Both the position numbers and the translations under genes were made by a program. DNA of 64,000 nucleotides. Source: Candidatus Magasanikiibacteriota bacterium. GTDB lineage: Bacteria > Patescibacteriota > Patescibacteriia > Magasanikbacterales > GWA2-37-8. Within the stretch, counting starts at the first letter, position 1; every line of letters begins with the position of its first letter. Below are positions 1,892-14,707 of the stretch, piece after piece. The notes under the pieces were generated by a model. That model worked only from the letters and a program-made list of their open reading frames with translations. It was not told where the DNA came from and ran no database searches. The stretch spans positions 10,417 through 74,416 of the forward strand of contig CALRIA010000002.1 of NCBI GenBank assembly GCA_943359595.1. Reading direction: 5' to 3'.

Positions 1892-3181
1892 ATGAAACAG
1901 TCACCAAAAGAAAAAATAATAAAACAATTTTCTGCAATGCCTTGGCAACCTTGGTTGCATCGACGTTTTGATCCGTTAGTGACTTATCTCATTATGGTAG
2001 GTGGCACAAGAGAAATATTTAAAACTCAGGGGATAGATGGTGAGTTTCCAATTTCACTTTACGATACCAACGATTGGTATAGTACCCAAGAAATGCTTAG
2101 TTTAGCAAGCAATGAAGCCAAAAGTTTTTTGCAACAAAAAAATATTATTAATTTGACTCATCAATGTGACAATCTTCTTGAATTTAGTCGTACTGCAGTA
2201 GAACAATTATTATCAAATCCAGGTGATCCAAAAAAGGATTATGAACAAGTAATTAAAATTATCACACCATTAAATGTCTATGTTTGGGTAGCACATAGTT
2301 CGGAAGTTTATTATCATGATCTGATTAGCTCAGCTACTTCCGCTTTTGTCACCCCAGAAAAATTAGAAACTTTTATTGGTGACATTAGTTTTCCGGTTAG
2401 AAAAAATTCTCTCGCCTTAATGGAGAATGATATTCGCGCCGGTGAAACTACAAAAGTGCTTTATAAAAAATATGCTTGGATAAAAGCGCGTGGTGGTTTT
2501 AGGCCAGGTTATACGTTGGCAGAAATTCGAGATATTCAAAAGGAAATTTTAAATAAACCGCAAGATAAACATCGTCATGTAGAAGTTCCGCCAGCTTTAG
2601 AACAGGCTGTTGGCGAATTGCAAGAATTGGTATATTTGCGTACATTGCGCACCGATGCGCTTTGGGAATTATATTATCTAGCCCAGCCTATTTTTGATCG
2701 GGCAGCCAAAGCTTTTGGCGTTAGTTCCGTAAAAGATTATATTCCCGAAGAATTATTGAAAGGTAATATAAAGCCAGTGCCAAATAATTACGCTATTTTA
2801 AAAAATTATGACACTATTGTTGTTACTGATCCAATTATCAAATTAAAAAATTCAGAAGTTGCAAATAGTGTACGGGGTGTTGTGGCTTATCGCGGTATTG
2901 TTAGTGGGCCAGTAAAAATTATATTTACTCCTCAAGAAATCAGCAAGGTGGTGACCGGAGATATTCTTGTCACAAATATGACCATACCTGCTTATGTTTC
3001 CGCGATGTACCGCGCTGCCGCATTTGTAACTAACGAGGGAGGTATTACTTGTCATGCCGCTATTCTCGCCCGCGAGCTAAAAAAACCTTGCATCATAGGA
3101 ACCAGAGTAGCTACACAGATTTTTAAAGATGGTGATCTGGTGGAAGTGGACGCTGAAAAAGGAATTGTAAGAAAAATATAA
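1892..3181 (+). CDS. Paralog P2: variable domain + C-terminal PEP-utilizer swivel domain
   Basis: 429 aa. C-terminus GGITCHAAILARELKKPCIIGTRVATQIFKDGDLVEVD. It starts 6 nt after P1. Confidence 0.75.
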   Translation: MKQSPKEKIIKQFSAMPWQPWLHRRFDPLVTYLIMVGGTREIFKTQGIDGEFPISLYDTNDWYSTQEMLSLASNEAKSFLQQKNIINLTHQCDNLLEFSRTAVEQLLSNPGDPKKDYEQVIKIITPLNVYVWVAHSSEVYYHDLISSATSAFVTPEKLETFIGDISFPVRKNSLALMENDIRAGETTKVLYKKYAWIKARGGFRPGYTLAEIRDIQKEILNKPQDKHRHVEVPPALEQAVGELQELVYLRTLRTDALWELYYLAQPIFDRAAKAFGVSSVKDYIPEELLKGNIKPVPNNYAILKNYDTIVVTDPIIKLKNSEVANSVRGVVAYRGIVSGPVKIIFTPQEISKVVTGDILVTNMTIPAYVSAMYRAAAFVTNEGGITCHAAILARELKKPCIIGTRVATQIFKDGDLVEVDAEKGIVRKI

Positions 3182-3204
3182 AAAATAATTCTCTAAAAAG
3201 CAAG

Positions 3205-3229
3205 CACCACCGGATATTAACCGGTGGTG
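3205..3229 (+). terminator. Hairpin downstream of P2 (caccaccgg-atattaa-ccggtggtg), possible intrinsic terminator
   Basis: A 9-bp perfect stem immediately after the P2 stop. The following T-tract is weak, so it may just mark the island boundary. Confidence 0.3.
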
Positions 3230-3305
3230 TATGCACTTTTATGATTTTTCAGAAGGCGGTATGCTCAGGCGGAATGAAAAAACGGTTCCGTTTGAACTTC
3301 TTCAC

Positions 3306-3803
3306 CTAGTTGGTGCCAGTCGCGATGAATTCAATCTTGATCTCGTCGCCATCAACCTTGATCGCGTAGACTGATCCACTTTTGGCTTCCGAAAGTGGAA
3401 TGCCTAGAGCAAGCAGGACTTCGCGACCCGCGCAGATGACGGTCTCATTAGGGAGTTTTTTCAGCTTCGCCCTTAGCGATGGCCCAGCGTCTTCGCCGCT
3501 AGTGCAGGTTTCAAACGCCACCTTGATTCCGCTCGCCAGTACCAGCATCTTTTCGCCGTCGATCAACTCCAGACTGCCACAAGCACCGAAAACAGACGAA
3601 ATCTGCAACCGGACACCAGTGTCGGAATAGCCGAGCTCTTCAGCCACAGCAAAGTGCCGGAGAGCTTCGCCAATACAGACGAGCGGTGGATCGATTACGA
3701 GATGAATCCGCAACGATCGAACGCAGGTTTTGCCGGCAACGGTCATGTCTGGATCAGCACCAGTTTCCTTTTCTCCGTGGGTAACCAGATATAAGGTTTT
3801 CAT
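3306..3803 (-). CDS. SixA/PGAM-like (histidine-phosphatase-superfamily-like) small protein encoded inside GC-rich island A
   Basis: 165 aa from the ATG at 3803; the ORF track starts at a GTG at 3833. N-terminus MKTLYLVTHGEKETGADPDMTVAGKT resembles the RHG-x-x...T-x-x-G signature of SixA-type histidine phosphatases, with Thr in place of Arg. The region is about 57% GC against about 33% for the flanks. Confidence 0.35.
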   Translation of the reverse strand: MKTLYLVTHGEKETGADPDMTVAGKTCVRSLRIHLVIDPPLVCIGEALRHFAVAEELGYSDTGVRLQISSVFGACGSLELIDGEKMLVLASGIKVAFETCTSGEDAGPSLRAKLKKLPNETVICAGREVLLALGIPLSEAKSGSVYAIKVDGDEIKIEFIATGTN

Positions 3804-3995
3804 TTTTGGGCCCTTCTGTTGTATCTTAGACACCCATCATTTTCAAGCCACTCGACTTAAGTTTTTGGGATCTGTTGTAAAAGTGCATTTATTCTGGAAA
3901 GTTGCCTTAGTTAAGGCTTTTTTCACCATAAATAAACATTTTACCTTACCAAAAAATAGTCATTTTGTCAATGTCTGTGTAAATTTATGGCTAAG

Positions 3996-4018
3996 ATATA
4001 GACAAATTTTGTCTATAT
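3996..4018. promoter_or_regulatory. 23-nt perfect palindrome atatagacaaa-t-tttgtctatat about 35 nt upstream of the P3 start
   Basis: Read directly: two 11-nt arms are exact reverse complements around one central nucleotide. It lies in the intergenic gap created by island A, in front of paralog P3. Confidence 0.3.
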
Positions 4019-4049
4019 GATACTATTAAAGTAGTTAAATAAATCATTC

Positions 4050-5402
4050 ATGTTCAAAGCCAGTAAAATTTTTAAATACAGTTGGGAACTTTATGTTTCT
4101 CGTAACGTGTCTGTTTGGCACGATACTTTGCATTTGATAAGAAGTGATTCTGGTTATCATCATTACAAATTAGGTAAAATGTATGTTCAATTTAGAATTC
4201 ATCGTAATTTAGAATCGGATTTTTATTATGCACTTACTGGTAGTCGATCGGCAGAAGATTTTATTGGTCGATTAGAGAAAAATTTAGAAAAAAAAGAATA
4301 TGTTGATTTTCTTAAAAAGGAGTATCGAAAAGATTGCATAAAGTTTTTAGCTCGGTCTAAAAATTTAAAATCTACTACCAAAAGCTTAAAGTCATTTTTA
4401 AATAATTATGGCTATTGTAATGTTCTTTTAGATATAACTTCTCGAGCAAGTAAGATTTTGACCGATAAATTAATGTTTGATTTAAAGGATAATCGAAAGC
4501 GCGATGCTATTATTAGTTATTATGCTGTTCCAAAACAATTAGCACCGATTCAAAAATTAGAAAAAGAAGTGGCGAAATTATATCATGATAAAAATCTAGA
4601 TAAAATAGCTGAAAGATTATGGAAAAAATATTGCTGGATTCCGGTGAGTTTTGTAGGTGAACCTTGGAGTAAAGAATATTTTTTAAATTTGTTAAAAACA
4701 GCTAATAAAAAAGTTTTGAGAATTTCACAAAAACCAAGGGTAAAATTATCCGTTAATTTAAAACATCTTTTATGGGCACTGTCGCAGATAACCTATCTAA
4801 ACGAATATCGTAAGAGCATTTTTTGTCAGGTTAATTTGAATATCCGACCAGTTTTGAATGAAATAGCCAAACGGAGTGGTTTAAAAGATTGGAAGGAAGT
4901 TTCGTTATTGACCCATGAGGAATTAATTTTGGCTTCTGATGGTAAAAATTTTTCTAAGTTGGTGGCGCGTCGTCAAAAAGAAATTTTTGCTGTTCATAAT
5001 ATTGATAGTAATCAACTTCAGGTAGTATATGGATTACCGGTTAAAAAATTTGAAGATAATTTTAAGATAAAAAATACCAACGTATCTGAATTTAGTGGTG
5101 TTGTTGGAAATAAAGGAAAGATTATTGGTGTAGTAAAGATAATTTTAAAACACAGTGATTTTGATAAATTTAAAGATGGCGATATCCTAGTTGCCAACAT
5201 GACATCAGTAGATTATTTACCAATCATGAAAAAGGCCGGCGCGTTTGTCACCGATGAGGGTGGTCTAGCGTGTCATGCGGCGGTGGTAGCGCGCGAATTT
5301 AATTTACCCTGTATTATCGGCACCAAAATTGCTACAGTGGTTTTAAAAGATGGTGATATAGTGGACGTGGACGCCAACAATGGTATAATTAGAAAAATAT
5401 GA
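4050..5402 (+). CDS. Paralog P3: variable domain + C-terminal PEP-utilizer swivel domain
   Basis: 450 aa. C-terminus GGLACHAAVVAREFNLPCIIGTKIATVVLKDGDIVDVD. Shared N-terminal-domain block KIAERLWKKYCWIPVSF. Confidence 0.75.
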   Translation: MFKASKIFKYSWELYVSRNVSVWHDTLHLIRSDSGYHHYKLGKMYVQFRIHRNLESDFYYALTGSRSAEDFIGRLEKNLEKKEYVDFLKKEYRKDCIKFLARSKNLKSTTKSLKSFLNNYGYCNVLLDITSRASKILTDKLMFDLKDNRKRDAIISYYAVPKQLAPIQKLEKEVAKLYHDKNLDKIAERLWKKYCWIPVSFVGEPWSKEYFLNLLKTANKKVLRISQKPRVKLSVNLKHLLWALSQITYLNEYRKSIFCQVNLNIRPVLNEIAKRSGLKDWKEVSLLTHEELILASDGKNFSKLVARRQKEIFAVHNIDSNQLQVVYGLPVKKFEDNFKIKNTNVSEFSGVVGNKGKIIGVVKIILKHSDFDKFKDGDILVANMTSVDYLPIMKKAGAFVTDEGGLACHAAVVAREFNLPCIIGTKIATVVLKDGDIVDVDANNGIIRKI

Positions 5403-6472
5403 AAAAAATTTATTTAGTTTTCACTAGGGATAATAATCAGTGGGTGAATGAAATGGTAGATTTTGTTTTTGTTAATGAATTACCAAAAATTTTTGGCGCC
5501 GGTCTAACAACCCAAATTACCCGTTTTACAGGACGTACTTTTGAATGGTATCGTTTTGTTGAAGAAATGAATAAATTAAAAACGACTGTTATCAGTAAAA
5601 AATCGGTAGATCCTATTTTTCAGAAAAAAAATCAAGTTAAATTTTTAAAAGAAGTTGTCGAATTAAGAAAATTAATTTCTATAAATCCTAAGCGAGTAAA
5701 AAATGATCTTGATTTATTGCAAGAAATAAAAACTAGATTTTTGGATGTGTATCCATTGTATGTTCTAGCGGTTTTTTTGCCTGGGCCTTGGCGCGATGAT
5801 TTTATTGCAGTTCATGGCGGTGGTTCAAAACAAATTTTAAATTTATTATTTAAAAGTCGCGAAGACAGCGAAGGTCTTTTAAAGGAAATAACCAATTTTA
5901 TGCGGTCCTGGCTTGGGCCACAGTTGCAAAAGGTTGGCTACCAGGCTGATTATTTAAAGTTACTTTCCGTATCGGAAGTAGAGGAGTTTGTGAGGCTGAA
6001 AAAAATGCCTCCACATAAGGAGTTAGATCAACGTTTCAAAGGTTTTGTGTATATGTACAGCAGGCTTGTTAAGACCAAAGATTTTAAAGTTTTTCTTAAA
6101 GATGAAAATATTTCTATTGAGACAGAAAATATAGTACTAAATAAAAATAGTTTCACTGGATCAATAGCTTATGCGAGTAAAATTGTGCGCGGCAAAGTTA
6201 AAGTAGTTTTGAATTCAACAGAGATGTTTGGTTTTAAAGAAGATATGATTTTGGTTACTCCTATGACTGCTCCGGAATATTTAGCGATTATGAAAAAGGC
6301 GAAGGCAATTATTACCAACGAAGGTGGAATTACTTGCCATGCCGCGATTGTGGCCCGAGAATTAAAAAAGGCTTGTATTATCGGTACAAAAATCGCCACT
6401 TTTGTTCTAAAAGACGGAGATTTGGTGGAGGTGGATTCTCACAAAGGAATAATTAGAAAAATAAATATTTAA
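5399..6472 (+). CDS. Paralog P4 (short): variable domain + C-terminal PEP-utilizer swivel domain
   Basis: 357 aa. C-terminus GGITCHAAIVARELKKACIIGTKIATFVLKDGDLVEVD. Its ATG overlaps the P3 stop (ATGA), which suggests translational coupling. Confidence 0.7.
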   Translation: MKKIYLVFTRDNNQWVNEMVDFVFVNELPKIFGAGLTTQITRFTGRTFEWYRFVEEMNKLKTTVISKKSVDPIFQKKNQVKFLKEVVELRKLISINPKRVKNDLDLLQEIKTRFLDVYPLYVLAVFLPGPWRDDFIAVHGGGSKQILNLLFKSREDSEGLLKEITNFMRSWLGPQLQKVGYQADYLKLLSVSEVEEFVRLKKMPPHKELDQRFKGFVYMYSRLVKTKDFKVFLKDENISIETENIVLNKNSFTGSIAYASKIVRGKVKVVLNSTEMFGFKEDMILVTPMTAPEYLAIMKKAKAIITNEGGITCHAAIVARELKKACIIGTKIATFVLKDGDLVEVDSHKGIIRKINI

Positions 6473-6473
6473 T

Positions 6474-7936
6474 ATGTTTGAATATATCAAGTCTCACGAA
6501 GAACACTCGGTTACACCTTTGACTATTTCGCCCAATCACAATGCTTGGCCATCAAAGATTTTAAAAAAATTATTGGACGGTCATGAGGTAGGAGAGCAGA
6601 CTTTTTGTATTCACAGAGATCAAGGCCTGGAATTTTATGCCGATCATAATGCTTGGGATAGAGGATCGGATTATTTTTTGGAGAAATTAAAACGAGATAA
6701 AAAAATAGTAAAAGAGGTCTCTTTTAATTCTCACAGGATTGCCGATCAAATTTTAAAGAAAATCAGAAATTTTGAACGTCAAAATATAAAAAAATGGTCC
6801 AACAAAGAAATCACAAAATTTTTATCCAGTAGCTATAAGCTAGGCAATGATCTGTGTGCCTATGGTTTTATCCCGGTAATCTCCGATCATTTTTTTCATA
6901 AATTTACCGATCTCCTCAAATCTATCGTGAAAAATAAAGAAAAAAATATTTCAGTAAAAATGACCGTTCCGGAAATAATTTTTCTTTTGTGTTCTCATTA
7001 TAAACCCGTACCTTCTAAATTGGCTAGAATAAAATTATTAAAACTTTTAAAAAAAATACCAATCAAGAAAAGATAAATAATTATTACTCTGATTGGCATT
7101 GGGTAGGCTTTGGGCAGCTTGGTCCAGGAATTGAACCTCAAGAGTTTTTAGCCGGCGCCGACAGTCTCTTTAAAAATAAACATCTTATAGACAAGGAATT
7201 AAAAGAGTTGATAAATTCTCCAAAAATTTTACAGAAAAAACAAAAAGAATTAATCAACAAATTGCGTTTGAACACTCAAGAGATTTTTTTATTTTCTACC
7301 GCGCGTGAGTTTACTTATCTTAAAGGTTTAAGAATGGAAGTTCTGTTTGGTCTTTGCGCCGCTTGGAGTAAAGCGCTGGACGAAATTTCAATTCGATTAA
7401 AGATGGATAAAAAATTACTTTATTACGCTTCCATGGCGGAATTAAATTCCGCTTTGTCGGGACAACATAGTTTAAATAAAGAAATTTTAAAAGATAGAAG
7501 TAAATTTTGTGTTTGGGTAGCTAATACCGAAAGTACTCAGAAAATTTTAGCTGGCAAAGAAGCCAGAGAATTTTTGAAGACAGTTAAATTTAAAGAAGCT
7601 AAAAAAATTGAAAAAGTTTTGGTTATTCACGGTACGGTCGCGTCGGTGGGATATGCCAAAGGTACAGTGAGAATTGTGAATAAAACTTCAGAAATAAATA
7701 AAGTAAAAGAAGGCGATGTGCTGGTTTCGGTTGCCACTCATCCTGGATTACTTCCCGCCATGAAAAAGGCCTGTGCTTTTGTGACTGATGCCGGTGGTAT
7801 CACTTCGCACGCCGCCATAGTCGCGCGTGAGATGGGTAAGCCGTGTATTATAGGCACTAAAATAGCGACTAAAATTTTAAAAGATGGTGATTTGGTAGAG
7901 CTGGATACTAAGAGAGGGGATATTAAAAAAATATAA
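6474..7936 (+). pseudogene. Paralog P5, disrupted by a frameshift in an A8 homopolymer (7049-7056): N-terminal half 6474-7076 in frame 0, C-terminal half with swivel domain continuing in frame 2 to 7936
   Basis: Frame 2 is open from 7028 through 7936 with no ATG/GTG before the TTG at 7208. The combined length of about 486 aa matches the intact paralogs. Adding one A to the A8 run yields a continuous ORF (...LLKKNTNQEKINNYYSDWHW...). C-terminus GGITSHAAIVAREMGKPCIIGTKIATKILKDGDLVELD. Confidence 0.6.
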
Positions 7937-7946
7937 AAATAATTTT

Positions 7947-9455
7947 TTGAACAATATGACTAAGCACACACAAGGTGATTGGATGATGATGTCTCAGCGT
8001 CAACGCATGAGCCCGTTTCCAAACTATATGTCTATGGAATCGGTTTGCAAAGAGATGAAAAAATTTGTTGGAGTAAATTTAAAAGACGTACTTCTATTTT
8101 TTAAAGGTAACATGATGTTTGCCTTTCAAGATAGTAAAGCCCACGAACAAGCCGGACAAAAAATTGCCAGTAGGATAGAAAAAAATCCACTTATGTATAG
8201 GCGTTTGGTCAAGCAGGAAGAAATTTTTGGAAATAAATTGGTAAAATTTACCAAGTTGGCCGGACAGCAAACGAATAGTAAAACCAGCAATCGTCGTCTG
8301 TATGAGTGGTATACTCAGTATGAAAAAATGTATAAAAATGTTTATGCCACTTATGGCTCGGTTTGGACAATGGAAGATCATCTGGTAGCCAAACTTTATG
8401 ATATTGTTCACAAACGTTGGCAAGATGGCTCTAAAATTAGCAATACTTTGAATAGTTTGACCAAACAACCGCTCGCCATGGTGGCTACTATTGAGCGTCA
8501 AGCGATATTGAAAATGGCGGTAAAAATTTTGTCTTCATCCGGTTTATTAAAATTAGTTCAATCCGGGTCTTTGGAAAATATTAAAAAGAACAAGATATTG
8601 CATAAATTAATATCCACTCACGAAAAGAACTTCTTCTGGATTACCAGAGATTATGAAGATCCAATTTTAACTTATGATGATATTGTCAAAAAATTACAAA
8701 TCATTTTAAAGGAAGATCCTGTCAAACAACAAAAAGAATTAAATGATAGATTAAGTGGCGATTTACGTGAAAGAAAAAAATTGGAAAAAGAATTAAAACT
8801 CAACAAAAAAGAGTTGGCTTTGTTTGCTTCCATGCGCGATGCTGCCAATTTAAAAGAACAGCGTAAAAAATTTGTTTCTCAGTCTTTATATTATTTTGAT
8901 CCGGTTTTAAATGAGATTAGTAAAAGATTATTTTTAACTGTGAAACAGGTAAGATTTTTCCGTACTAGTGATGTTTATGAGGCTTTGGTAAAAAATAAAG
9001 ATTTGACTAGCGAATTAAATGAGCGTTTTAATTTATCAGTGTGGCATTCCAGTACCAATGGTACAAAAGTCACAGTTGGTAAGGAAGCGCAAAAAATATT
9101 TGATGAGTTTTGCCAAGTGGATAAAAATGCAAGCGAATTTACAGGCATGCCGGTGTCGCCAGGGGTGGCACGCGGTCCAGCCAAAATCGTTTTAAATCCA
9201 AATGAATGTGATAAGGTAAATAAAGGGGACATAATTGTAAGTGTTCAGGTGGTGCCAAGTTTTTCGACAGCGATTATTAAGTCAGCTGGTATAGTTTGTG
9301 ATGGTGGCCACGGTATTACTTCCCATCCGGCGACTTTGTCGCGAGAAGCGGGAGTACCGTGCGTGATTCAAACTAGATTTGTGCGCGAAGTGGTAAAAGA
9401 TGGTGATGTACTGGAAGTGGATGGATATAAAGGCATCGTAAAAATAATAAAATAA
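7947..9455 (+). CDS. Paralog P6 (most divergent): variable domain + C-terminal PEP-utilizer swivel domain
   Basis: 502 aa. C-terminus GGHGITSHPATLSREAGVPCVIQTRFVREVVKDGDVLEVD. Shared block LTVKQVRFFRTSDV. Confidence 0.7.
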   Translation: MNNMTKHTQGDWMMMSQRQRMSPFPNYMSMESVCKEMKKFVGVNLKDVLLFFKGNMMFAFQDSKAHEQAGQKIASRIEKNPLMYRRLVKQEEIFGNKLVKFTKLAGQQTNSKTSNRRLYEWYTQYEKMYKNVYATYGSVWTMEDHLVAKLYDIVHKRWQDGSKISNTLNSLTKQPLAMVATIERQAILKMAVKILSSSGLLKLVQSGSLENIKKNKILHKLISTHEKNFFWITRDYEDPILTYDDIVKKLQIILKEDPVKQQKELNDRLSGDLRERKKLEKELKLNKKELALFASMRDAANLKEQRKKFVSQSLYYFDPVLNEISKRLFLTVKQVRFFRTSDVYEALVKNKDLTSELNERFNLSVWHSSTNGTKVTVGKEAQKIFDEFCQVDKNASEFTGMPVSPGVARGPAKIVLNPNECDKVNKGDIIVSVQVVPSFSTAIIKSAGIVCDGGHGITSHPATLSREAGVPCVIQTRFVREVVKDGDVLEVDGYKGIVKIIK

Positions 9456-9469
9456 TTTATAAAAATAAA

Positions 9470-9497
9470 AACAACCTGATTAGTCAGGTTGTTTTTT
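9470..9497 (+). terminator. Rho-independent terminator of the paralog operon
   Basis: A 10-bp perfect stem aacaacctga / tcaggttgtt with loop ttag, followed by TTTT, 15 nt after the P6 stop. Confidence 0.6.
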
Positions 9498-9586
9498 AAA
9501 GCTCAATATTCTTTCGAGAAAAATATTAAGCTCTTGGGGACGCGAATTGCTTCGCGTCCCGTCGAGTGGGTGTACCCCAAAGCCCG

Positions 9587-10219
9587 TCAGTCCAACGGAA
9601 TCTTGAGCGGCTTGGCGCTGATGAAGGTCGCCTTGCCGTCCTTCACCTGGAACGTGGCCAGAACGGACTCGCCCCGGTCGACCAAGTTGTTGGCGATGTC
9701 GAGGACTTCGGCGGCGCTGCGATGGCCATTGAGCCACTGCATTGCCACTTCCATCCGCGCCACGCCGTGGCTGGTGACCAGGACGAACTTGCCGGGGTTG
9801 GCCACGGCGATTTCGGTCAGGGCGGTGGCACCTTCTTCCGCGCGCATCAGCATCAGCTCGTGCAATTCCGGCATCTCGGGCAGACACTTCGCCAGGCTCG
9901 AGTCGTCGTCGTTGCCGAACTGGGACTTCGCCATCTCCTTGAGACGATTCAGGCTGTCGGGTGCCGCGCGCTTGTCGGTCTTGAAGTCGCCCAGGCGGGT
10001 CTCGTTCTCGATCAGCAGCGAGATGCCAGCACCTTCGAGCATGCGTTCGGCAGTGCTGACCGCACGCGGAAGTGGCGAAGAGACGGCCGCTTCAATCTGT
10101 GCGGTCTTGCCCAGGACTTGACCACGCCGCCTGGCGCGGTCTGCGCCTTCGGTCGTGAGGACGTTGTTCTCGTGTTCCTCGTGTCGTGTTAACACGAGAA
10201 TGGTGGTTTTTGTGGGCAT
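9587..10219 (-). CDS. Histidine phosphatase superfamily (phosphoglycerate-mutase-like) protein inside GC-rich island B
   Basis: 210 aa from the ATG at 10219, which is preceded by the strong SD AAGGAGGTG. Motifs LVLTRHEEHE (RHG-like His1 region) and LVTSHGVARM (SHG His2 region). About 60-62% GC against a host value of about 33%. The ORF track start at 10255 is an upstream in-frame ATG. Confidence 0.6.
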   Translation of the reverse strand: MPTKTTILVLTRHEEHENNVLTTEGADRARRRGQVLGKTAQIEAAVSSPLPRAVSTAERMLEGAGISLLIENETRLGDFKTDKRAAPDSLNRLKEMAKSQFGNDDDSSLAKCLPEMPELHELMLMRAEEGATALTEIAVANPGKFVLVTSHGVARMEVAMQWLNGHRSAAEVLDIANNLVDRGESVLATFQVKDGKATFISAKPLKIPLD

Positions 10220-10309
10220 GGCCCACCTCCTTGGTTTAGCTAGAGACGCTAACATCTTCGCCGAAACCCTCGGACGAGAGATCCGGCTTGCCCGGTGACT
10301 GGTTATTCC

Positions 10310-10362
10310 CAGCTTAGTCAGTAACTAGGGATAAAATTTATCTATAGTTACTGACTAAGCTG
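10310..10362. promoter_or_regulatory. 17-bp perfect inverted repeat (cagcttagtcagtaact ...19 nt... agttactgactaagctg) at the right edge of GC island B
   Basis: Read directly. It sits in the divergent region between the island phosphatase gene (minus strand) and the AT-rich leader of the 10621 phosphatase gene. It could be an operator or a mobile-element/insertion boundary. Confidence 0.3.
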
Positions 10363-10620
10363 TGGGGTATTTAATTTTTCAAAGTACACTCACTCATTAT
10401 TGCTGTAGAACACCTATATTTACTGTTAGTAGATACGGTATGCCCATTTTGCAATAACAGTTGAGTATAGCATAAAATAGGGATTTTGTCAATATATTAA
10501 CTGCTTTTTTGGCTAAAGTTAGCTATTTAATTATTAAGGATAGCAATAATATTGGTGACTAGTGGATGGGTATGTTAAAATCCAATCTAAGTATGCTATA
10601 CTTATTATAAGTAATTTTTT

Positions 10621-11436
10621 ATGAGAGAATTTTTTGCCAGCCAAGATAGAGAATTTAATTCAGATATTGAAACAGAAAATGTTCGCGACTTACCAGTCGT
10701 GACGGCTTATATTATTCGTCATGGTGAGACCACGGAAGATAAATTAAATCCGAATCGTAGTTTGACCACAGAAGGCGAGAGTCAAGCCGACGACGCAGCC
10801 GAACAGCTAATCACCGAATTAAATCCACAGACAGACGTTATCCAAATTTTGGATAGCGGTAATCATCGCGCCAATGTGACCGTGGTGAGAATCGCGGAAA
10901 AATTAAAAGCCGCCGGTTTTAATTTTTTTGTTCCTGTACCTAGTGATAAATCCGGAAATCTGCAAGCAGAAAATATTCCTACTACTCCTGAACCAAAATC
11001 ACGTAGCTACAATAAAATTGCGGCCGCTAATATTCCAGATCAATTTAAAAAATTACTGGCTGATCCGGTATTGCACGCTGAGCTTGGACTTGGAAATGAT
11101 ATTCCGGATAAAAGAGTTATGACTTGGTTTATGATTCAAAGAGATGGTATGGAAACTCCACAGCAGGTATTGGAGAGGGTGCGCCAGGGTATGAATGATA
11201 CTCAAAAAAAATTACCTCAGTTAAATAAAGTTTTGTCGCCGGATCAACGCATTGTAGTGGTGGCGGCCGGCAATGCTTCTATGGTTGATTCGGTAGTCAC
11301 TGAAGCTTCCAAAGTTCACCCTAAAGACAGAGGTGGAGAAATTAGTAATTGTGAAGGATTTAAAGTTGATTTCAATTTAGGCGCTGATCCAAAGATTAAT
11401 TTATGGGGAGAAAATATTGAACAATATTCTAAATAA
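10621..11436 (+). CDS. Histidine phosphatase superfamily protein (host-like GC)
   Basis: 271 aa. N-terminal motif AYIIRHGETTED...SLTTEGESQA (RHG signature). Its stop is 8 nt upstream of the ATP-grasp gene, so the two are probably co-transcribed. Confidence 0.6.
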   Translation: MREFFASQDREFNSDIETENVRDLPVVTAYIIRHGETTEDKLNPNRSLTTEGESQADDAAEQLITELNPQTDVIQILDSGNHRANVTVVRIAEKLKAAGFNFFVPVPSDKSGNLQAENIPTTPEPKSRSYNKIAAANIPDQFKKLLADPVLHAELGLGNDIPDKRVMTWFMIQRDGMETPQQVLERVRQGMNDTQKKLPQLNKVLSPDQRIVVVAAGNASMVDSVVTEASKVHPKDRGGEISNCEGFKVDFNLGADPKINLWGENIEQYSK

Positions 11437-11444
11437 ATAAAATT

Positions 11445-12428
11445 ATGTCTCACATCAAATTTTTTAAACAACTTTCAAAAAGCAACGTCGATATCGCCGG
11501 TGGCAAAGGCGCCAGTCTTGGTGAGATGACGCAAGCCAAAATTTCGGTACCGCCTGGTTTTGTAGTTTTATCGGCTGCTTTTGATAGATTTTTACAAGAG
11601 ACTGGTTTAAAGGAAGATATTGTGGCGCAATTAAAAAAAGTTAATCCACAAGATACTAATTCAGTAGATAAAGCGAGTGCTGTAATTCGTGATATGATTC
11701 ACGATAAGTCGATGCCCAAAGATTTGGAAAAAGAAATTTTGGTTGCTTTTAAGAAATTAGATGCTAAATTTGTCGCAGTTCGTAGTAGTGCTACGGCAGA
11801 AGATTCAGCAATAGCTAGTTGGGCTGGTGAGTTGGAAACTTATCTTAATACCGAAAAGAAAGATGTACTAGAAAGAGTAAAACTTTGTTGGTCTTCATTA
11901 TTTACTCCACGGGCTATTTTTTACCGTCATGAAAAAAAATTGATCGATCACTATGTTTCGGTGGCAGTGGTTATCCAAAAAATGATTCAGAGCGAAATAT
12001 CCGGTGTGGCTTTTACCGTTCATCCAGTGACAGAAGATTATGACCAGATGATTATTGAAGCTGGGTTTGGTTTGGGTGAGGCAATAGTTTCAGGACAGAT
12101 TACTCCAGATAGTTATATAATTAGTAAAAGTGAAATGAGTATATTGGATATTAATATTAGTGAACAAAATAGAAAATTAATACGTAAGGTTGGTAAGAAA
12201 AAAGGAGAAGAAGATGAAGAGAATAAATCTAACCATTGGGTTAAGCTTGGCAAGGAAGGTAGTAAACAAAAACTCACTGGTAAACAAATTATTGCAGCAG
12301 CCGAGTTATTTAAAAAAATTGAAAAACACTATAATTTTCCATGTGATATTGAGTGGGCAATGGAAAAAAATAAAGTGTATATCACTCAAAGCCGTCCGAT
12401 TACAACATTAAAAAATAGCCAAATATAG
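11445..12428 (+). CDS. Stand-alone PEP synthase / pyruvate phosphate dikinase N-terminal ATP-grasp (nucleotide-binding) domain protein
   Basis: 327 aa collinear with PpsA residues about 1-340. Motifs IAGGKGASLGEM (PpsA VGGKNASLGEM), VRSSATAEDS (PpsA VRSSATAEDM) and DIEWA...ITQSRP (PpsA DIEWA...VQARP). It ends where PpsA/Rph would continue into the phosphohistidine domain. Confidence 0.85.
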   Translation: MSHIKFFKQLSKSNVDIAGGKGASLGEMTQAKISVPPGFVVLSAAFDRFLQETGLKEDIVAQLKKVNPQDTNSVDKASAVIRDMIHDKSMPKDLEKEILVAFKKLDAKFVAVRSSATAEDSAIASWAGELETYLNTEKKDVLERVKLCWSSLFTPRAIFYRHEKKLIDHYVSVAVVIQKMIQSEISGVAFTVHPVTEDYDQMIIEAGFGLGEAIVSGQITPDSYIISKSEMSILDINISEQNRKLIRKVGKKKGEEDEENKSNHWVKLGKEGSKQKLTGKQIIAAAELFKKIEKHYNFPCDIEWAMEKNKVYITQSRPITTLKNSQI

Positions 12429-12445
12429 CCAAAACAAGTTTAGAT

Positions 12446-12474
12446 TGACAAAAAGATAAAAAGGTGCTATTATA
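12446..12474 (+). promoter_or_regulatory. Sigma-70-type promoter (TTGACA-17nt-TATTAT) for the zinc-ribbon gene
   Basis: Consensus -35 at 12446-12451, a 17-nt spacer, and the -10 at 12469-12474. It is followed by a leader of about 105 nt before the ATG at 12585. Confidence 0.5.
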
Positions 12475-12584
12475 TCGCTAATAACTTGGGCAACAAGAGT
12501 AGGTCAAAAGGCCAAAATATGTTCCCAACTAGGTCGTTTATTTATTTTCCAAACAACATTTTGGAATATATAAGGAATAATATT

Positions 12585-12908
12585 ATGGCTTTTGGATCTG
12601 ATAGACAAATGTACGATGTAGACTTGACTTGCGCAAAATGCGGAGCTCACATCTCACAGTTGCCTTTCCAACCTTCAGGTGATCGCCCAGTTTACTGCTC
12701 CGACTGTAACCGTGCTTTCCGCAAGGATCGTCCAGCTACAGATCGTGGTGGACGCGCTGGCGGTTTTTCCCAAGCTCCTCGCCAGATGTACAGTGTCAAC
12801 TTGAACTGCGCATCTTGTGGTCAGCAGATTTCTGAGTTGCCTTTCCAACCAACTGGTGACAAACCAGTATATTGCCGAGACTGCATGCAGGCTCGTCGCA
12901 ATGGTTAA
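12585..12908 (+). CDS. Small protein with two tandem CxxC-x17-CxxC zinc-ribbon repeats joined by an Arg/Gly-rich linker
   Basis: 107 aa. The repeats are MYDVDLTCAKCGAHISQLPFQPSGDRPVYCSDC and MYSVNLNCASCGQQISELPFQPTGDKPVYCRDC. Linker RKDRPATDRGGRAGGFSQAPRQ. The RBS aaggaataa precedes the ATG. The ORF-track start at 12486 is an upstream in-frame ATG with no RBS. Confidence 0.6.
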   Translation: MAFGSDRQMYDVDLTCAKCGAHISQLPFQPSGDRPVYCSDCNRAFRKDRPATDRGGRAGGFSQAPRQMYSVNLNCASCGQQISELPFQPTGDKPVYCRDCMQARRNG

Positions 12909-12925
12909 TTGACAATCAACTTGAA

Positions 12926-12951
12926 CCCCTCGAATTTTCGGGGGGTTTTTT
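12926..12951 (+). terminator. Rho-independent terminator (cccctcg-aatttt-cgggggg + T6)
   Basis: A 7-bp GC-rich stem, 6-nt loop and T-run immediately after the zinc-ribbon gene. Confidence 0.7.
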
Positions 12952-12958
12952 GTTTGCC

Positions 12959-12986
12959 TTGAATTTTTGCTAATAAATGGTATAAT
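12959..12986 (+). promoter_or_regulatory. Promoter with extended -10 (TTGAAT-16nt-TGgTATAAT) for the HD-domain gene
   Basis: Read directly: tggtataat at 12978-12986, about 32 nt upstream of the ATG at 13019. Confidence 0.4.
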
Positions 12987-13018
12987 CAATCAAGTAATTA
13001 AGGTTTCCAATTATTGTT

Positions 13019-13636
13019 ATGTATACAAAAATTCAGCGTGAGATAATTAGTTATACGCGTGCCAAGATAAAATCTTATATGGAAAATAACCCTGCTGCTG
13101 GGCATGGGTCTGACCATGCTATACGTGTCGCAATGTGGGCGTTTGAAATTGCCAAAAAAGAAAAAGCCAACATATTTTTATGTGAGCTTGGAGGACTACT
13201 TCATGATGTTGGTCGCTCGTGGGAAAATACTGATGTTCAAAAACGTCGTCATCATGAATTGTCTTATGAAATTTGTCGGGATTGGTTTAAAAATGATAAA
13301 ATTTTATTTACTCTCACAAATCAAGAAAAATTAATTTTGTTGTATAGTATCCGCTATCATTGGAATAATGCAGCTGATAAATATTTTGAGGCGGTAGTTT
13401 TACGTGATGCCGATAAACTTGATGCTTTTGGTAAAATTGGTATAAAGCGAACGGAAGAATTTTTCAATTTTGATCGTGAAAAAACCATGGATAATTTACG
13501 ATTACGTGAACATGACATGTTTTGGTTGAGGACTGGTGCCGCACGAAGTTATTTTGAAAAACACAAAATGTTTGATCCGATTTTAAAATATATGATCAAA
13601 AAATTAAAAGAAGATATTCGTCCGGTGGAATTATAG
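13019..13636 (+). CDS. HD-domain phosphohydrolase
   Basis: 205 aa. Motif GHGSDHAIRV ... LGGLLHDVGR is the H...HD...D metal-binding signature of the HD superfamily. Confidence 0.7.
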   Translation: MYTKIQREIISYTRAKIKSYMENNPAAGHGSDHAIRVAMWAFEIAKKEKANIFLCELGGLLHDVGRSWENTDVQKRRHHELSYEICRDWFKNDKILFTLTNQEKLILLYSIRYHWNNAADKYFEAVVLRDADKLDAFGKIGIKRTEEFFNFDREKTMDNLRLREHDMFWLRTGAARSYFEKHKMFDPILKYMIKKLKEDIRPVEL

Positions 13637-13639
13637 ATT

Positions 13640-14707
13640 ATGTTAAAAAGGAAAAGTAAAATTAAAGTTTTGGTTTGTTTGTCAGGTGGTGTGGATTCGT
13701 CTGTGTCCGCTGCCTTATTGGTTAAAGCCGGATATAATGTCACAGCGGCTTTTATGGTGAACTATGAGGACCAATCTAGTGACCAATCTTGTTGGCGTGA
13801 TGATTATCATGATGCGTTGCGGGTTGCGGCTAAATTGGGCATTCAACTGTTGCGTTTGGATTTTGTGAAGGAATATAGTCGCGATGTGCTTAATTATATG
13901 TATAAAGAATACGAAACAGGACGCACGCCAAATCCAGATGTGTTATGTAATAAATTTGTAAAGTTTGGTGCTTGGTTGAATAAGGCTCGCTCCCTTGGTT
14001 TTGATTACATTGCTACCGGACATTATGCTCGGATAAAAAAGAGCGGTCGTAAATTTTTGTTGCAGGAAGCCAAAGACAAAAATAAAGATCAGACTTATTT
14101 TTTGCATCAGCTCAACCAAGAACAGTTGAAAGGTGTTTTATTTCCAATTGGGAACTATAACAAGGATCAAGTGCGTAAACTGGCAACCAAATTTGATTTA
14201 CCGACTGCACAAAAAGAAGAAAGTATGGGAATTTGTTTTGTGGGTGAAGTGCCAATGCGTGATTTTTTAAAAAATAAAATCAAAGTTAGTCCAGGAAAAA
14301 TTGTTGATGAAAATAAAAATATTTTAGGTCAACACGATGGTTTGGCCTATTATACTATAGGCCAGCGTAATTTAGGGTTAAATAGTAAAGATGGTAAACC
14401 GATGTTTGTAGTGGACAAAAATTTACAAGACAATGAATTGATTGTTGGTGGTGAATTTAGCCAGTTGTTGTTTAAAAATGAGATCTCGGTGGGAGAAGAA
14501 AATTGGGTGGCTGGTTTGGTGCAAAAATTACCTTTGAAATGCTATGTTAGATTACGCCATCGTCAAGAACTTCAATCTGCCAAAGTTTTTGTCGATAAAA
14601 AACAATTAAAAATTAAATTTGCCAAGGCACAAAGAGCTATAACCCCAGGTCAGTTTGCAGTAATCTACAAAAATGGCCTATGTTTAGGTGGGGGAGTAAT
14701 TTTATAA
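13640..14707 (+). CDS. mnmA: tRNA-specific 2-thiouridylase MnmA
   Basis: PP-loop VLVCLSGGVDSSV, and NPDVLCNKFVKFGAWL...IATGHYAR, typical of MnmA/TrmU. Confidence 0.9.
   Translation: MLKRKSKIKVLVCLSGGVDSSVSAALLVKAGYNVTAAFMVNYEDQSSDQSCWRDDYHDALRVAAKLGIQLLRLDFVKEYSRDVLNYMYKEYETGRTPNPDVLCNKFVKFGAWLNKARSLGFDYIATGHYARIKKSGRKFLLQEAKDKNKDQTYFLHQLNQEQLKGVLFPIGNYNKDQVRKLATKFDLPTAQKEESMGICFVGEVPMRDFLKNKIKVSPGKIVDENKNILGQHDGLAYYTIGQRNLGLNSKDGKPMFVVDKNLQDNELIVGGEFSQLLFKNEISVGEENWVAGLVQKLPLKCYVRLRHRQELQSAKVFVDKKQLKIKFAKAQRAITPGQFAVIYKNGLCLGGGVIL

Follow-up and report, generated by a model that had tools for sequence, protein, structure and literature searches.

A histidine-phosphatase-fold protein accompanying many-acceptor dikinase gene clusters of Candidatus Magasanikbacteria

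The Locus

The DNA analyzed here, which we call the window, is a stretch of 64,000 nt of contig CALRIA010000002.1 from a Candidatus Magasanikiibacteriota bacterium; the genome has a guanine plus cytosine (GC) content of ~36% and its relatives are labeled Candidatus Magasanikbacteria. About 12 kb of the window hold the genes of a single ATP-grasp subunit, of at least six acceptor paralogues with a swivel phospho-histidine (phospho-His) domain, and of several phosphatase-fold proteins, and this cluster lies within a conserved housekeeping region, beside MnmA, AlaRS, and ribosomal protein genes. Our subject is the gene of a 271-aa protein with the RHG motif of the histidine phosphatases. It stands directly before the ATP-grasp gene, and the initial annotation had described the two as a native, co-transcribed, candidate kinase/phosphatase pair. 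The pair and its signals are the following:

10621-11436, + strand: phosphatase open reading frame (ORF), ATG start, 271 aa, TAA stop at 11434-11436
11437-11444, + strand: intergenic spacer ATAAAATT, 8 nt, without terminator and without Shine-Dalgarno site
11445-12428, + strand: stand-alone ATP-grasp (PPDK_N) subunit, ATG at 11445, 327 aa
10575-10602, + strand: promoter-like site, TTAAAA-16-TATACT with TG, 18 nt before the phosphatase start codon, a consensus match only
12923-12948: terminator-like hairpin, the next such site downstream of the pair

The coordinates of the pair agree in the ORF list and in the sequence: as had been annotated, the RHG-motif protein, whose residues 29-42 are AYIIRHGETTEDKL (containing IIRHGETTED), ends 8 nt before the ATP-grasp start. 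The description of its gene as native is also confirmed, because the base composition is host-like. Its GC content is 0.40 and its GC content at third codon positions (GC3) is 0.31, within the range of 0.24-0.33 found in five of the six comparison host genes (the sixth, a zinc-ribbon gene, has 0.42); a nearby GC-rich gene has 0.81. Co-transcription of the phosphatase and ATP-grasp genes, stated outright in the annotation, is plausible from the sequence, inasmuch as a scan of the gap between them for terminator-like sites found none and a promoter-like site lies upstream; the GC-rich gene's promoter and this site are oriented divergently.

One ATP-Grasp Subunit and Many Swivel-Histidine Paralogues

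The protein encoded at 11445-12428 consists of PPDK_N alone (Pfam, E 3e-96, profile positions 2-315 of 328), and its matches in the Protein Data Bank (PDB) are the N-terminal domains of phosphoenolpyruvate (PEP) synthase and of a Listeria enzyme solved as rifampin phosphotransferase, RPH (PMC4844700). At least 120 distinct clusters of Magasanikbacteria type share 67-90% identity with it. The pair is preceded by six swivel-His genes on the + strand; at the left edge of the window there is, in addition, a C-terminal fragment of 115 aa. In each paralogue a divergent, mostly helical N-terminal region is followed by a PEP-utilizers mobile domain, that of the swivel phospho-His:

353-1885, + strand: swivel-His paralogue, with a variable, mostly helical N-terminal region and the PEP-utilizers mobile domain
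1892-3181, + strand: swivel-His paralogue
4050-5402, + strand: swivel-His paralogue
5399-6472, + strand: swivel-His paralogue, short form of 357 aa
6474-7936, + strand: swivel-His paralogue, split by a frameshift into 6474-7076 and 7208-7936
7947-9455, + strand: swivel-His paralogue, 502 aa

The split gene is intact, with 490 aa, in the ENA assembly of the same genome (L009), relative to which the window is 10 nt short after position 7034; a base-by-base comparison over 6411-8000 (1.6 kb) found the two otherwise identical. In an alignment of 39 swivel paralogues the catalytic His and its flanking motif, GG..H...RE, are invariant, and the N-terminal domains diverge, with 24-30% identity for most pairs. 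As regards a possible counterpart of the rifampin-binding domain of RPH in these N-terminal regions, NCBIfam models of the RPH/PEP-synthase-like kind align over ~130-170 residues upstream of the swivel domain, and matches of the paralogues to PDB sequences end at that domain, none being detectable for the N-terminal domains. An AlphaFold model of the protein at 353-1885, with five paralogues of the window as alignment, had a predicted local distance difference test score (pLDDT) of 49 and was unusable.

Two-component small-molecule dikinases have, to our knowledge, been recognized only recently, and so far as one-to-one pairs in the catabolism of aromatic compounds. HpeHI, CreHI, and PpsAB (phenylphosphate synthase) are enzymes of this type and split relatives of the single-chain RPH (PMC12167813, PMC4844700). 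Judged by its predicted domains, the cluster matches their architecture, in that one protein is ATP-grasp only and the swivel His domain stands at the end of a second, separate subunit. In contrast to these one-acceptor pairs, however, a single ATP-grasp gene is here accompanied by two to at least seven acceptor paralogues, and the host is an ultra-small bacterium of the Candidate Phyla Radiation (CPR) rather than a degrader of aromatic compounds. What the cluster encodes is a known type of kinase in a new version with many acceptors; a literature search for this CPR cluster found nothing.

A Divergent Subfamily of Branch-1 Histidine Phosphatases

The 271-aa protein matches Pfam His_Phos_1 (PF00300) with 27.8 bits (cut-off 21.7) over residues 30-96 only; a member of the sister clade, P0033, additionally matches the C-terminal half of the profile. 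An AlphaFold model built from 17 homologues reached a pLDDT of 88.5 and a predicted template modeling score of 0.86, and branch-1 histidine phosphatases were 49 of its 50 top Foldseek matches in the PDB (E ~1e-8 to 3e-6, template modeling score 0.5-0.63), among them GpgP, PspA, RosC, phosphoglycerate mutases (PGAMs), and mycobacterial hydrolases. On the evidence of Pfam and of the modeled structure, the protein falls in branch 1 (PGAM/SixA) of the superfamily, one of the two branches that the initial annotation had considered, and has a predicted PGAM-like alpha/beta fold.

The nucleophile His lies in R33-H34-G35, after strand 1, and among 22 diverse members neither R33 nor H34 varies. The second active-site Arg, R83 of SGNHRA (motif SGNxRA, at the start of helix 2), is invariant or nearly so across the family, and its motif aligns with the 's..RA' of PGAM-family chains in the PDB and of SixA-type proteins. 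The position of the second catalytic His is occupied by an Asn, AAGN(218)AS, that is invariant in the 17-member clade; in the sister clade the same column holds the His of motifs such as 'ANSHAS' and 'ITHGG' (hhalign probability 100%), and another clade (P0026, P0029, P0035, P0048) also has Asn at this position. As read from these alignments, the clade of the 271-aa protein has lost the second catalytic His. Other conserved residues are W169 and E178 family-wide and N243 and E245 within the close clade, and H152 and D163-K164-R165 are likewise invariant. Relative to SixA-type sequences there is an insertion of ~100 residues, roughly at 104-200.

The family is small: it comprises 17 clusters in a set of 5.8 billion proteins, with 33 representatives at E<=1e-10. 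When 1.84 billion representatives were searched with its profile, only 100 proteins came in at E<=1e-3, the weakest of which include proteins that pass the SixA cut-off. Two members are fusions, and the genes of both adjoin swivel paralogues: P0018 (L014 8765-10777), of 670 aa, has two such domains in tandem, its N-terminal half carrying 'FTRHEKPG', and P0048 (L023 10001-12232), of 743 aa, is joined to a Peptidase_M29 aminopeptidase domain.

SixA (TIGR00249) is the only NCBIfam match of the 271-aa protein, with 30.6 bits over residues 29-101 against a cut-off of 74.5; true SixA-type proteins score 80-108 bits in the same test. Both belong to branch 1, the N-terminal half shares RHG-x10-R-x-LT..G and SG.xRA, and proteins that pass the SixA cut-off match the family profile over residues 29-99 with an hhalign probability of 98.6%. 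But SixA has ~155 aa and no cap insertion, whereas our protein has 271 aa, the ~100-residue insertion, and an Asn for the second catalytic His; moreover, the gene described here is tied to dikinase clusters rather than to PTS-Ntr or two-component systems. The SixA model invoked in the initial annotation therefore does not extend to identity, and orthology is ruled out by the bit score, the length, and the insertion. The structural neighbors GpgP (mycobacterial Rv2419c, 4pza), PspA (Hydrogenobacter, 4ij6), RosC (9emu), and PGAM have the core sheet in common with it, and their insertion lies at the same position; the 271-aa protein is only 11-18% identical to them and, unlike it, they retain the full Arg-His-Arg-His quartet. 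We know of no link to a dikinase for any of these four. Cofactor-dependent phosphoglycerate mutase (dPGM), the identity named in the annotation as fatal to its proposal, is not borne out: the NCBIfam search gave no dPGM model at E<=0.01, and PGAM sequence matches in the PDB are weak and N-terminal (E 0.2). The protein represents a lineage-restricted, catalytically atypical new subfamily of a known fold, from Candidatus Magasanikbacteria and related CPR bacteria.

Conservation of the Association

The alignment search for loci of the close family gave only 2 GTDB genomes and 5 metagenome loci, and in all 12 independent family loci had usable context (the window, L001, L004, L006, L008, L012, L014, L017, L019, L020, L023, and L024). 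Every one of the 12 adjoins swivel paralogues, an orphan PPDK_N gene, or both. Since the relatives are always in the same multi-gene kinase cluster, there is good support for a functional link between the phosphatase and the ATP-grasp subunit, which very probably work together; the link to the orphan ATP-grasp/swivel-His system, whose conservation the initial annotation had made its own test, is thus upheld. Clusters with a family member contain one gene of the family, as against two to at least seven swivel paralogues. In four lineages the phosphatase gene and PPDK_N share a strand, the former standing directly before the latter, with a spacing of 8 nt in the window, 9 nt in L004, and 3 nt in L017, and with a stop/start overlap, ATGA, in L024, where the phosphatase is a ~28%-identical member of the His type. 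In L001, L006, and L020 it lies one to three genes from PPDK_N.

Three clusters (L020, L021, and L022) were picked through the ATP-grasp protein alone. All three have some His_Phos_1 gene, and only one of them has the family of the 271-aa protein: L020 contains a His-type member, L021 the GC-rich type only (see below), and L022 a different type of 309 aa. The lack of a family member in L021 indicates that the phosphatase is accessory, not essential. Likewise, the orphan ATP-grasp gene is far more widespread (at least 120 clusters at >=67% identity, versus 17 for the phosphatase), so that the phosphatase-fold protein is a recurrent accessory of the dikinase system and not a core part of it. Clusters of relatives also contain, separately, HAD hydrolase genes, and phosphohydrolase-type genes of the HD and Lactamase_B kinds.

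GC-Rich Genes and Their Leader RNA

Two genes on the - strand of the window stand out by their composition, and the initial annotation had spoken of the "islands" that encode them. These genes and the signals before them are:

9587-10219, - strand: canonical His_Phos_1 gene (RHEEHENN...TSHG; Pfam E 2e-11), 62% GC, GC3 0.81
3306-3803, - strand: second GC-rich gene, 165 aa, 'MKTLYLVTHGEKE', fold unverified
10492-10464, - strand: near-consensus promoter TTGACA-17-TATACT, which would drive the GC-rich gene and is part of the 10220-10492 region
10220-10492 region, - strand: conserved structured leader of the GC-rich gene, ~240 nt; also at 3804-3971 (- strand)
10398-10381, - strand: invariant box of the leader, AATGAGTGAGTGTACTTT
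10362-10310, - strand: leader hairpin of ~26 bp

Nine of the 14 clusters examined hold a gene with a GC3 of 0.80-0.94, against 0.24-0.67 in their host genes (0.24-0.51 in low-GC hosts). The GC-rich genes are mostly on the opposite strand, often with RH...SHG phosphatase motifs, and occupy the following regions:

Window: 9451-10375 and 3251-3825
L001: 5023-5739
L004: 8915-9571
L006: 9630-10418
L008: 4932-5651
L014: ~7085-7749
L017: 2080-2535
L020: 7354-7851
L021: 9054-9683

The gene at 9587-10219 has its likely true start at the ATG at 10219, preceded by a perfect Shine-Dalgarno site, AAGGAGGTG, and the GC-rich genes of relatives have similar sites; host genes are nearly all without one (weak 4-nt matches at 3 of 30; 32 gene starts checked window-wide). 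The protein encoded at 3306-3803 has no Pfam match even at E<=1, and its sole profile match, a weak one, covers 31 residues at the N terminus (hhalign 61%). Of the two island-encoded phosphatase homologs of the initial annotation, the first is accordingly a genuine His_Phos_1 protein, and the second, one of the three phosphatase-fold proteins said to surround the system, is not demonstrably of that fold.

An orthologue of the gene at 9587-10219, encoding a 70% identical protein, occupies the same site in L021. Between the two clusters, synonymous divergence of the GC-rich gene (50/146 codons) is somewhat below that of PPDK_N (128/271), and the protein identity is within the range of the flanking genes. 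Because this orthologue at the same site has diverged about like its flanks, the high GC content appears to be maintained rather than recently imported. Relatives of the gene were found in 16 unnamed metagenomic clusters only, with no high-GC donor lineage among them, and this family together with the L021 orthologue rules out a recent horizontal transfer from a high-GC donor. An assembly chimera as origin of the GC-rich patches is also rejected, the same sequence being present in an ENA contig and in a Logan contig, although these may come from related samples. Far from being one-off imports, the "islands" are conserved, vertically retained components of the cluster.

Their content is nevertheless variable. 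In close relatives, conserved flanks (83-90% nucleotide identity; window 9400-10460, L004 8750-9850, L017 2000-2760, L020 7250-8100) enclose unrelated GC-rich ORFs of two types, the canonical His_Phos_1 and an 'IPNDAVRCVV...VAYGHE' type without Pfam match, which suggests that these ORFs are swapped like cassettes within the flanks. The promoter and the ~240-nt leader are common to the GC-rich genes. The leader, which would be transcribed divergently from the phosphatase/ATP-grasp pair, has compensatory changes in 14 of 44 predicted pairs, a count from only five sequences (five lineages), and it had no match in an Rfam search of 3000-13200, where no family reached threshold; it is a candidate for a new cis-regulatory RNA. 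The GC-rich genes are arguably more surprising than the phosphatase/ATP-grasp pair.

Proposed Role of the Phosphatase

The 271-aa protein is in all likelihood a dedicated accessory of the dikinase cluster. As to its function, we favor, with a probability of about 0.4, a phosphatase that targets the swivel phospho-His by a mechanism of the SixA type. One ATP-grasp subunit (11445-12428) would charge the invariant His of several paralogues, two to at least seven per cluster; the phosphoryl group would move from the swivel phospho-His onto His34 of the phosphatase and would then be released as phosphate, as in the two-step reaction of SixA. The phosphatase could in this way reset or throttle all the paralogues via their one common feature. 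In this scheme it is our inference that the protein is catalytically active, that the swivel domain is its phospho-donor, and that its gene is co-transcribed with the ATP-grasp gene.

Several considerations lead us to prefer this target. A single family gene is set against many paralogues that share only the swivel motif; the HAD hydrolases of relatives, which are of the type that acts on product phosphates, leave the phosphatase another job; and the gene to which its own is closely joined, at times with translational coupling, is that of the shared ATP-grasp subunit. There is also the precedent of E. coli SixA, which acts on NPr, the HPt domain of ArcB, and Ndk. SixA dephosphorylates the phospho-His of NPr, forming a transient phospho-His of its own (PMC7948535), and it also acts on the phospho-His intermediate of Ndk (PMC12934123).

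A number of observations weigh against a SixA-like action on the swivel domain. N218 stands where the second catalytic His would be, so that the enzyme may be weak or changed in its activity. The ~100-residue insertion is a further difficulty, as insertions in other branch-1 enzymes shape small-molecule pockets, and the best structural neighbors in Foldseek are small-molecule phosphatases (GpgP, PspA, RosC, PGAM), not SixA. In the genomic context, direct adjacency to the ATP-grasp gene is missing in eight of the 12 loci, L008, L014, and L019 carry the phosphatase gene on the opposite strand, and L021 is without a member of the family. Conservation of the annotated gene pair is thus partial: the window, L004, L017, and the distant L024 have the two genes side by side, and in the other eight loci adjacency and shared strand are not kept.

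The large insertion between core strands and the nearest solved structures would suit an enzyme that, like HpeD in the hydroxyphenylethanone (Hpe) pathway, hydrolyzes a phosphate ester, either on the small molecule or molecules phosphorylated by the dikinase paralogues or on an intermediate further downstream. Known two-component dikinase pathways indeed have a dedicated phosphatase for the phosphorylated intermediate (PMC9618137, PMC12167813), and phosphohydrolase-type genes (HAD, HD, Lactamase_B) also populate the clusters described here. We regard such a role as possible but somewhat doubtful, since one family gene faces two to at least seven divergent paralogues and the enzyme would need a very broad specificity. 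Moreover, the HAD hydrolases of relatives could already fill the place of HpeD, and HpeD, the dedicated phosphatase of the Hpe pathway, is itself HAD-type (PMC9618137), not histidine-phosphatase-type like the protein here, which HAD hydrolases accompany in relatives. In this enzyme class the chemistry goes by way of phospho-His on the swivel domain. Because HpeH alone can move phosphate between product and substrate (PMC12167813), removal of phosphate from either the phospho-His or the product would presumably drain the other. Distinctly less probable than either is a catalytically impaired acceptor, sensor, or regulator that binds a phospho-ligand or the phospho-swivel, or holds the phosphoryl group on His34, and so regulates the ATP-grasp subunit or passes the phosphate on, without efficient hydrolysis. 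In its favor is N218: all of the 17-member clade have this Asn where the sister clade retains His, so that the change reflects selection and not decay; a second clade (P0026, P0029, P0035, P0048) likewise carries Asn, and the translational coupling in L024 and the 3-9 nt spacing in three lineages are typical of interacting subunits. Yet the nucleophile His, both Arg, and the other family-wide residues stay conserved, as in an active enzyme, and an Asn could still hydrogen-bond phosphate. There is, finally, the coincidence of a housekeeping phosphatase or phosphoglycerate mutase that came by chance to lie beside an ATP-grasp gene. The merely partial Pfam coverage and the location of the cluster within a conserved housekeeping region are in keeping with this, but the family is tiny and restricted, no dPGM model matches it, and 12 of 12 loci are dikinase clusters, even where the housekeeping neighbors are others (L006, L023, L024). 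We give chance next to no credence, and the context survey effectively refutes it.

If the protein does act on the swivel phospho-His, enzymatic removal of phospho-His would extend from NPr, HPt, and Ndk to the PEP-utilizer class and would give a handle on the control of a shared kinase module; if it is a product phosphatase instead, the cluster would still be a useful entry to uncharted CPR metabolism. The selected change of His to Asn, at a position that is canonically catalytic, amounts to a natural experiment with the histidine-phosphatase fold. Only tentatively, and with more doubt than confidence, do we put forward the widest formulation: that the family is the first phosphohistidine phosphatase or phospho-acceptor devoted to the swivel domain of dikinases of the PEP-utilizing type, resetting a combinatorial system of one ATP-grasp subunit and many substrate-specific acceptors, at a locus that also holds exchangeable GC-rich phosphatase-like genes (GC3 >0.8 versus ~0.3) expressed from an undescribed leader RNA.

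Neighboring Genes

Downstream of the pair lie two further genes:

12486-12908, + strand: double treble-clef zinc-ribbon protein (zf_Tbcl_2, Pfam)
13019-13636, + strand: HD-domain phosphohydrolase-fold protein, syntenic in several relatives, membership in the system uncertain

The zf_Tbcl_2 gene follows the ATP-grasp gene in the window, L004, L008, L014, L020, L021, and L022, and in L017 it comes after the ATP-grasp gene but is separated from it by a GC-rich gene. The zf_Tbcl_2 gene is provided with a strong promoter-like site of its own (12445-12473), and it holds the one other GC-rich patch of the 64 kb (12601-12925). A known anti-phage system was rejected as an explanation of the cluster: apart from a weak HD/Cas10 match, PADLOC defense-system models had no match to the cluster proteins.

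On the other side, the paralogue array of four relatives is immediately preceded by a gene for a TraG/VirD4-type coupling protein of type IV secretion, as follows; the window itself starts within the array.

L001: 1-872
L004: 1-100
L020: 3857-5734
L021: 1-1807

The accessory proteins of diversity-generating retroelements include those of the bAvd / 23S_rRNA_IVP type, and in L006 genes of this type (11988-12347 and 14279-14581) flank the cluster.

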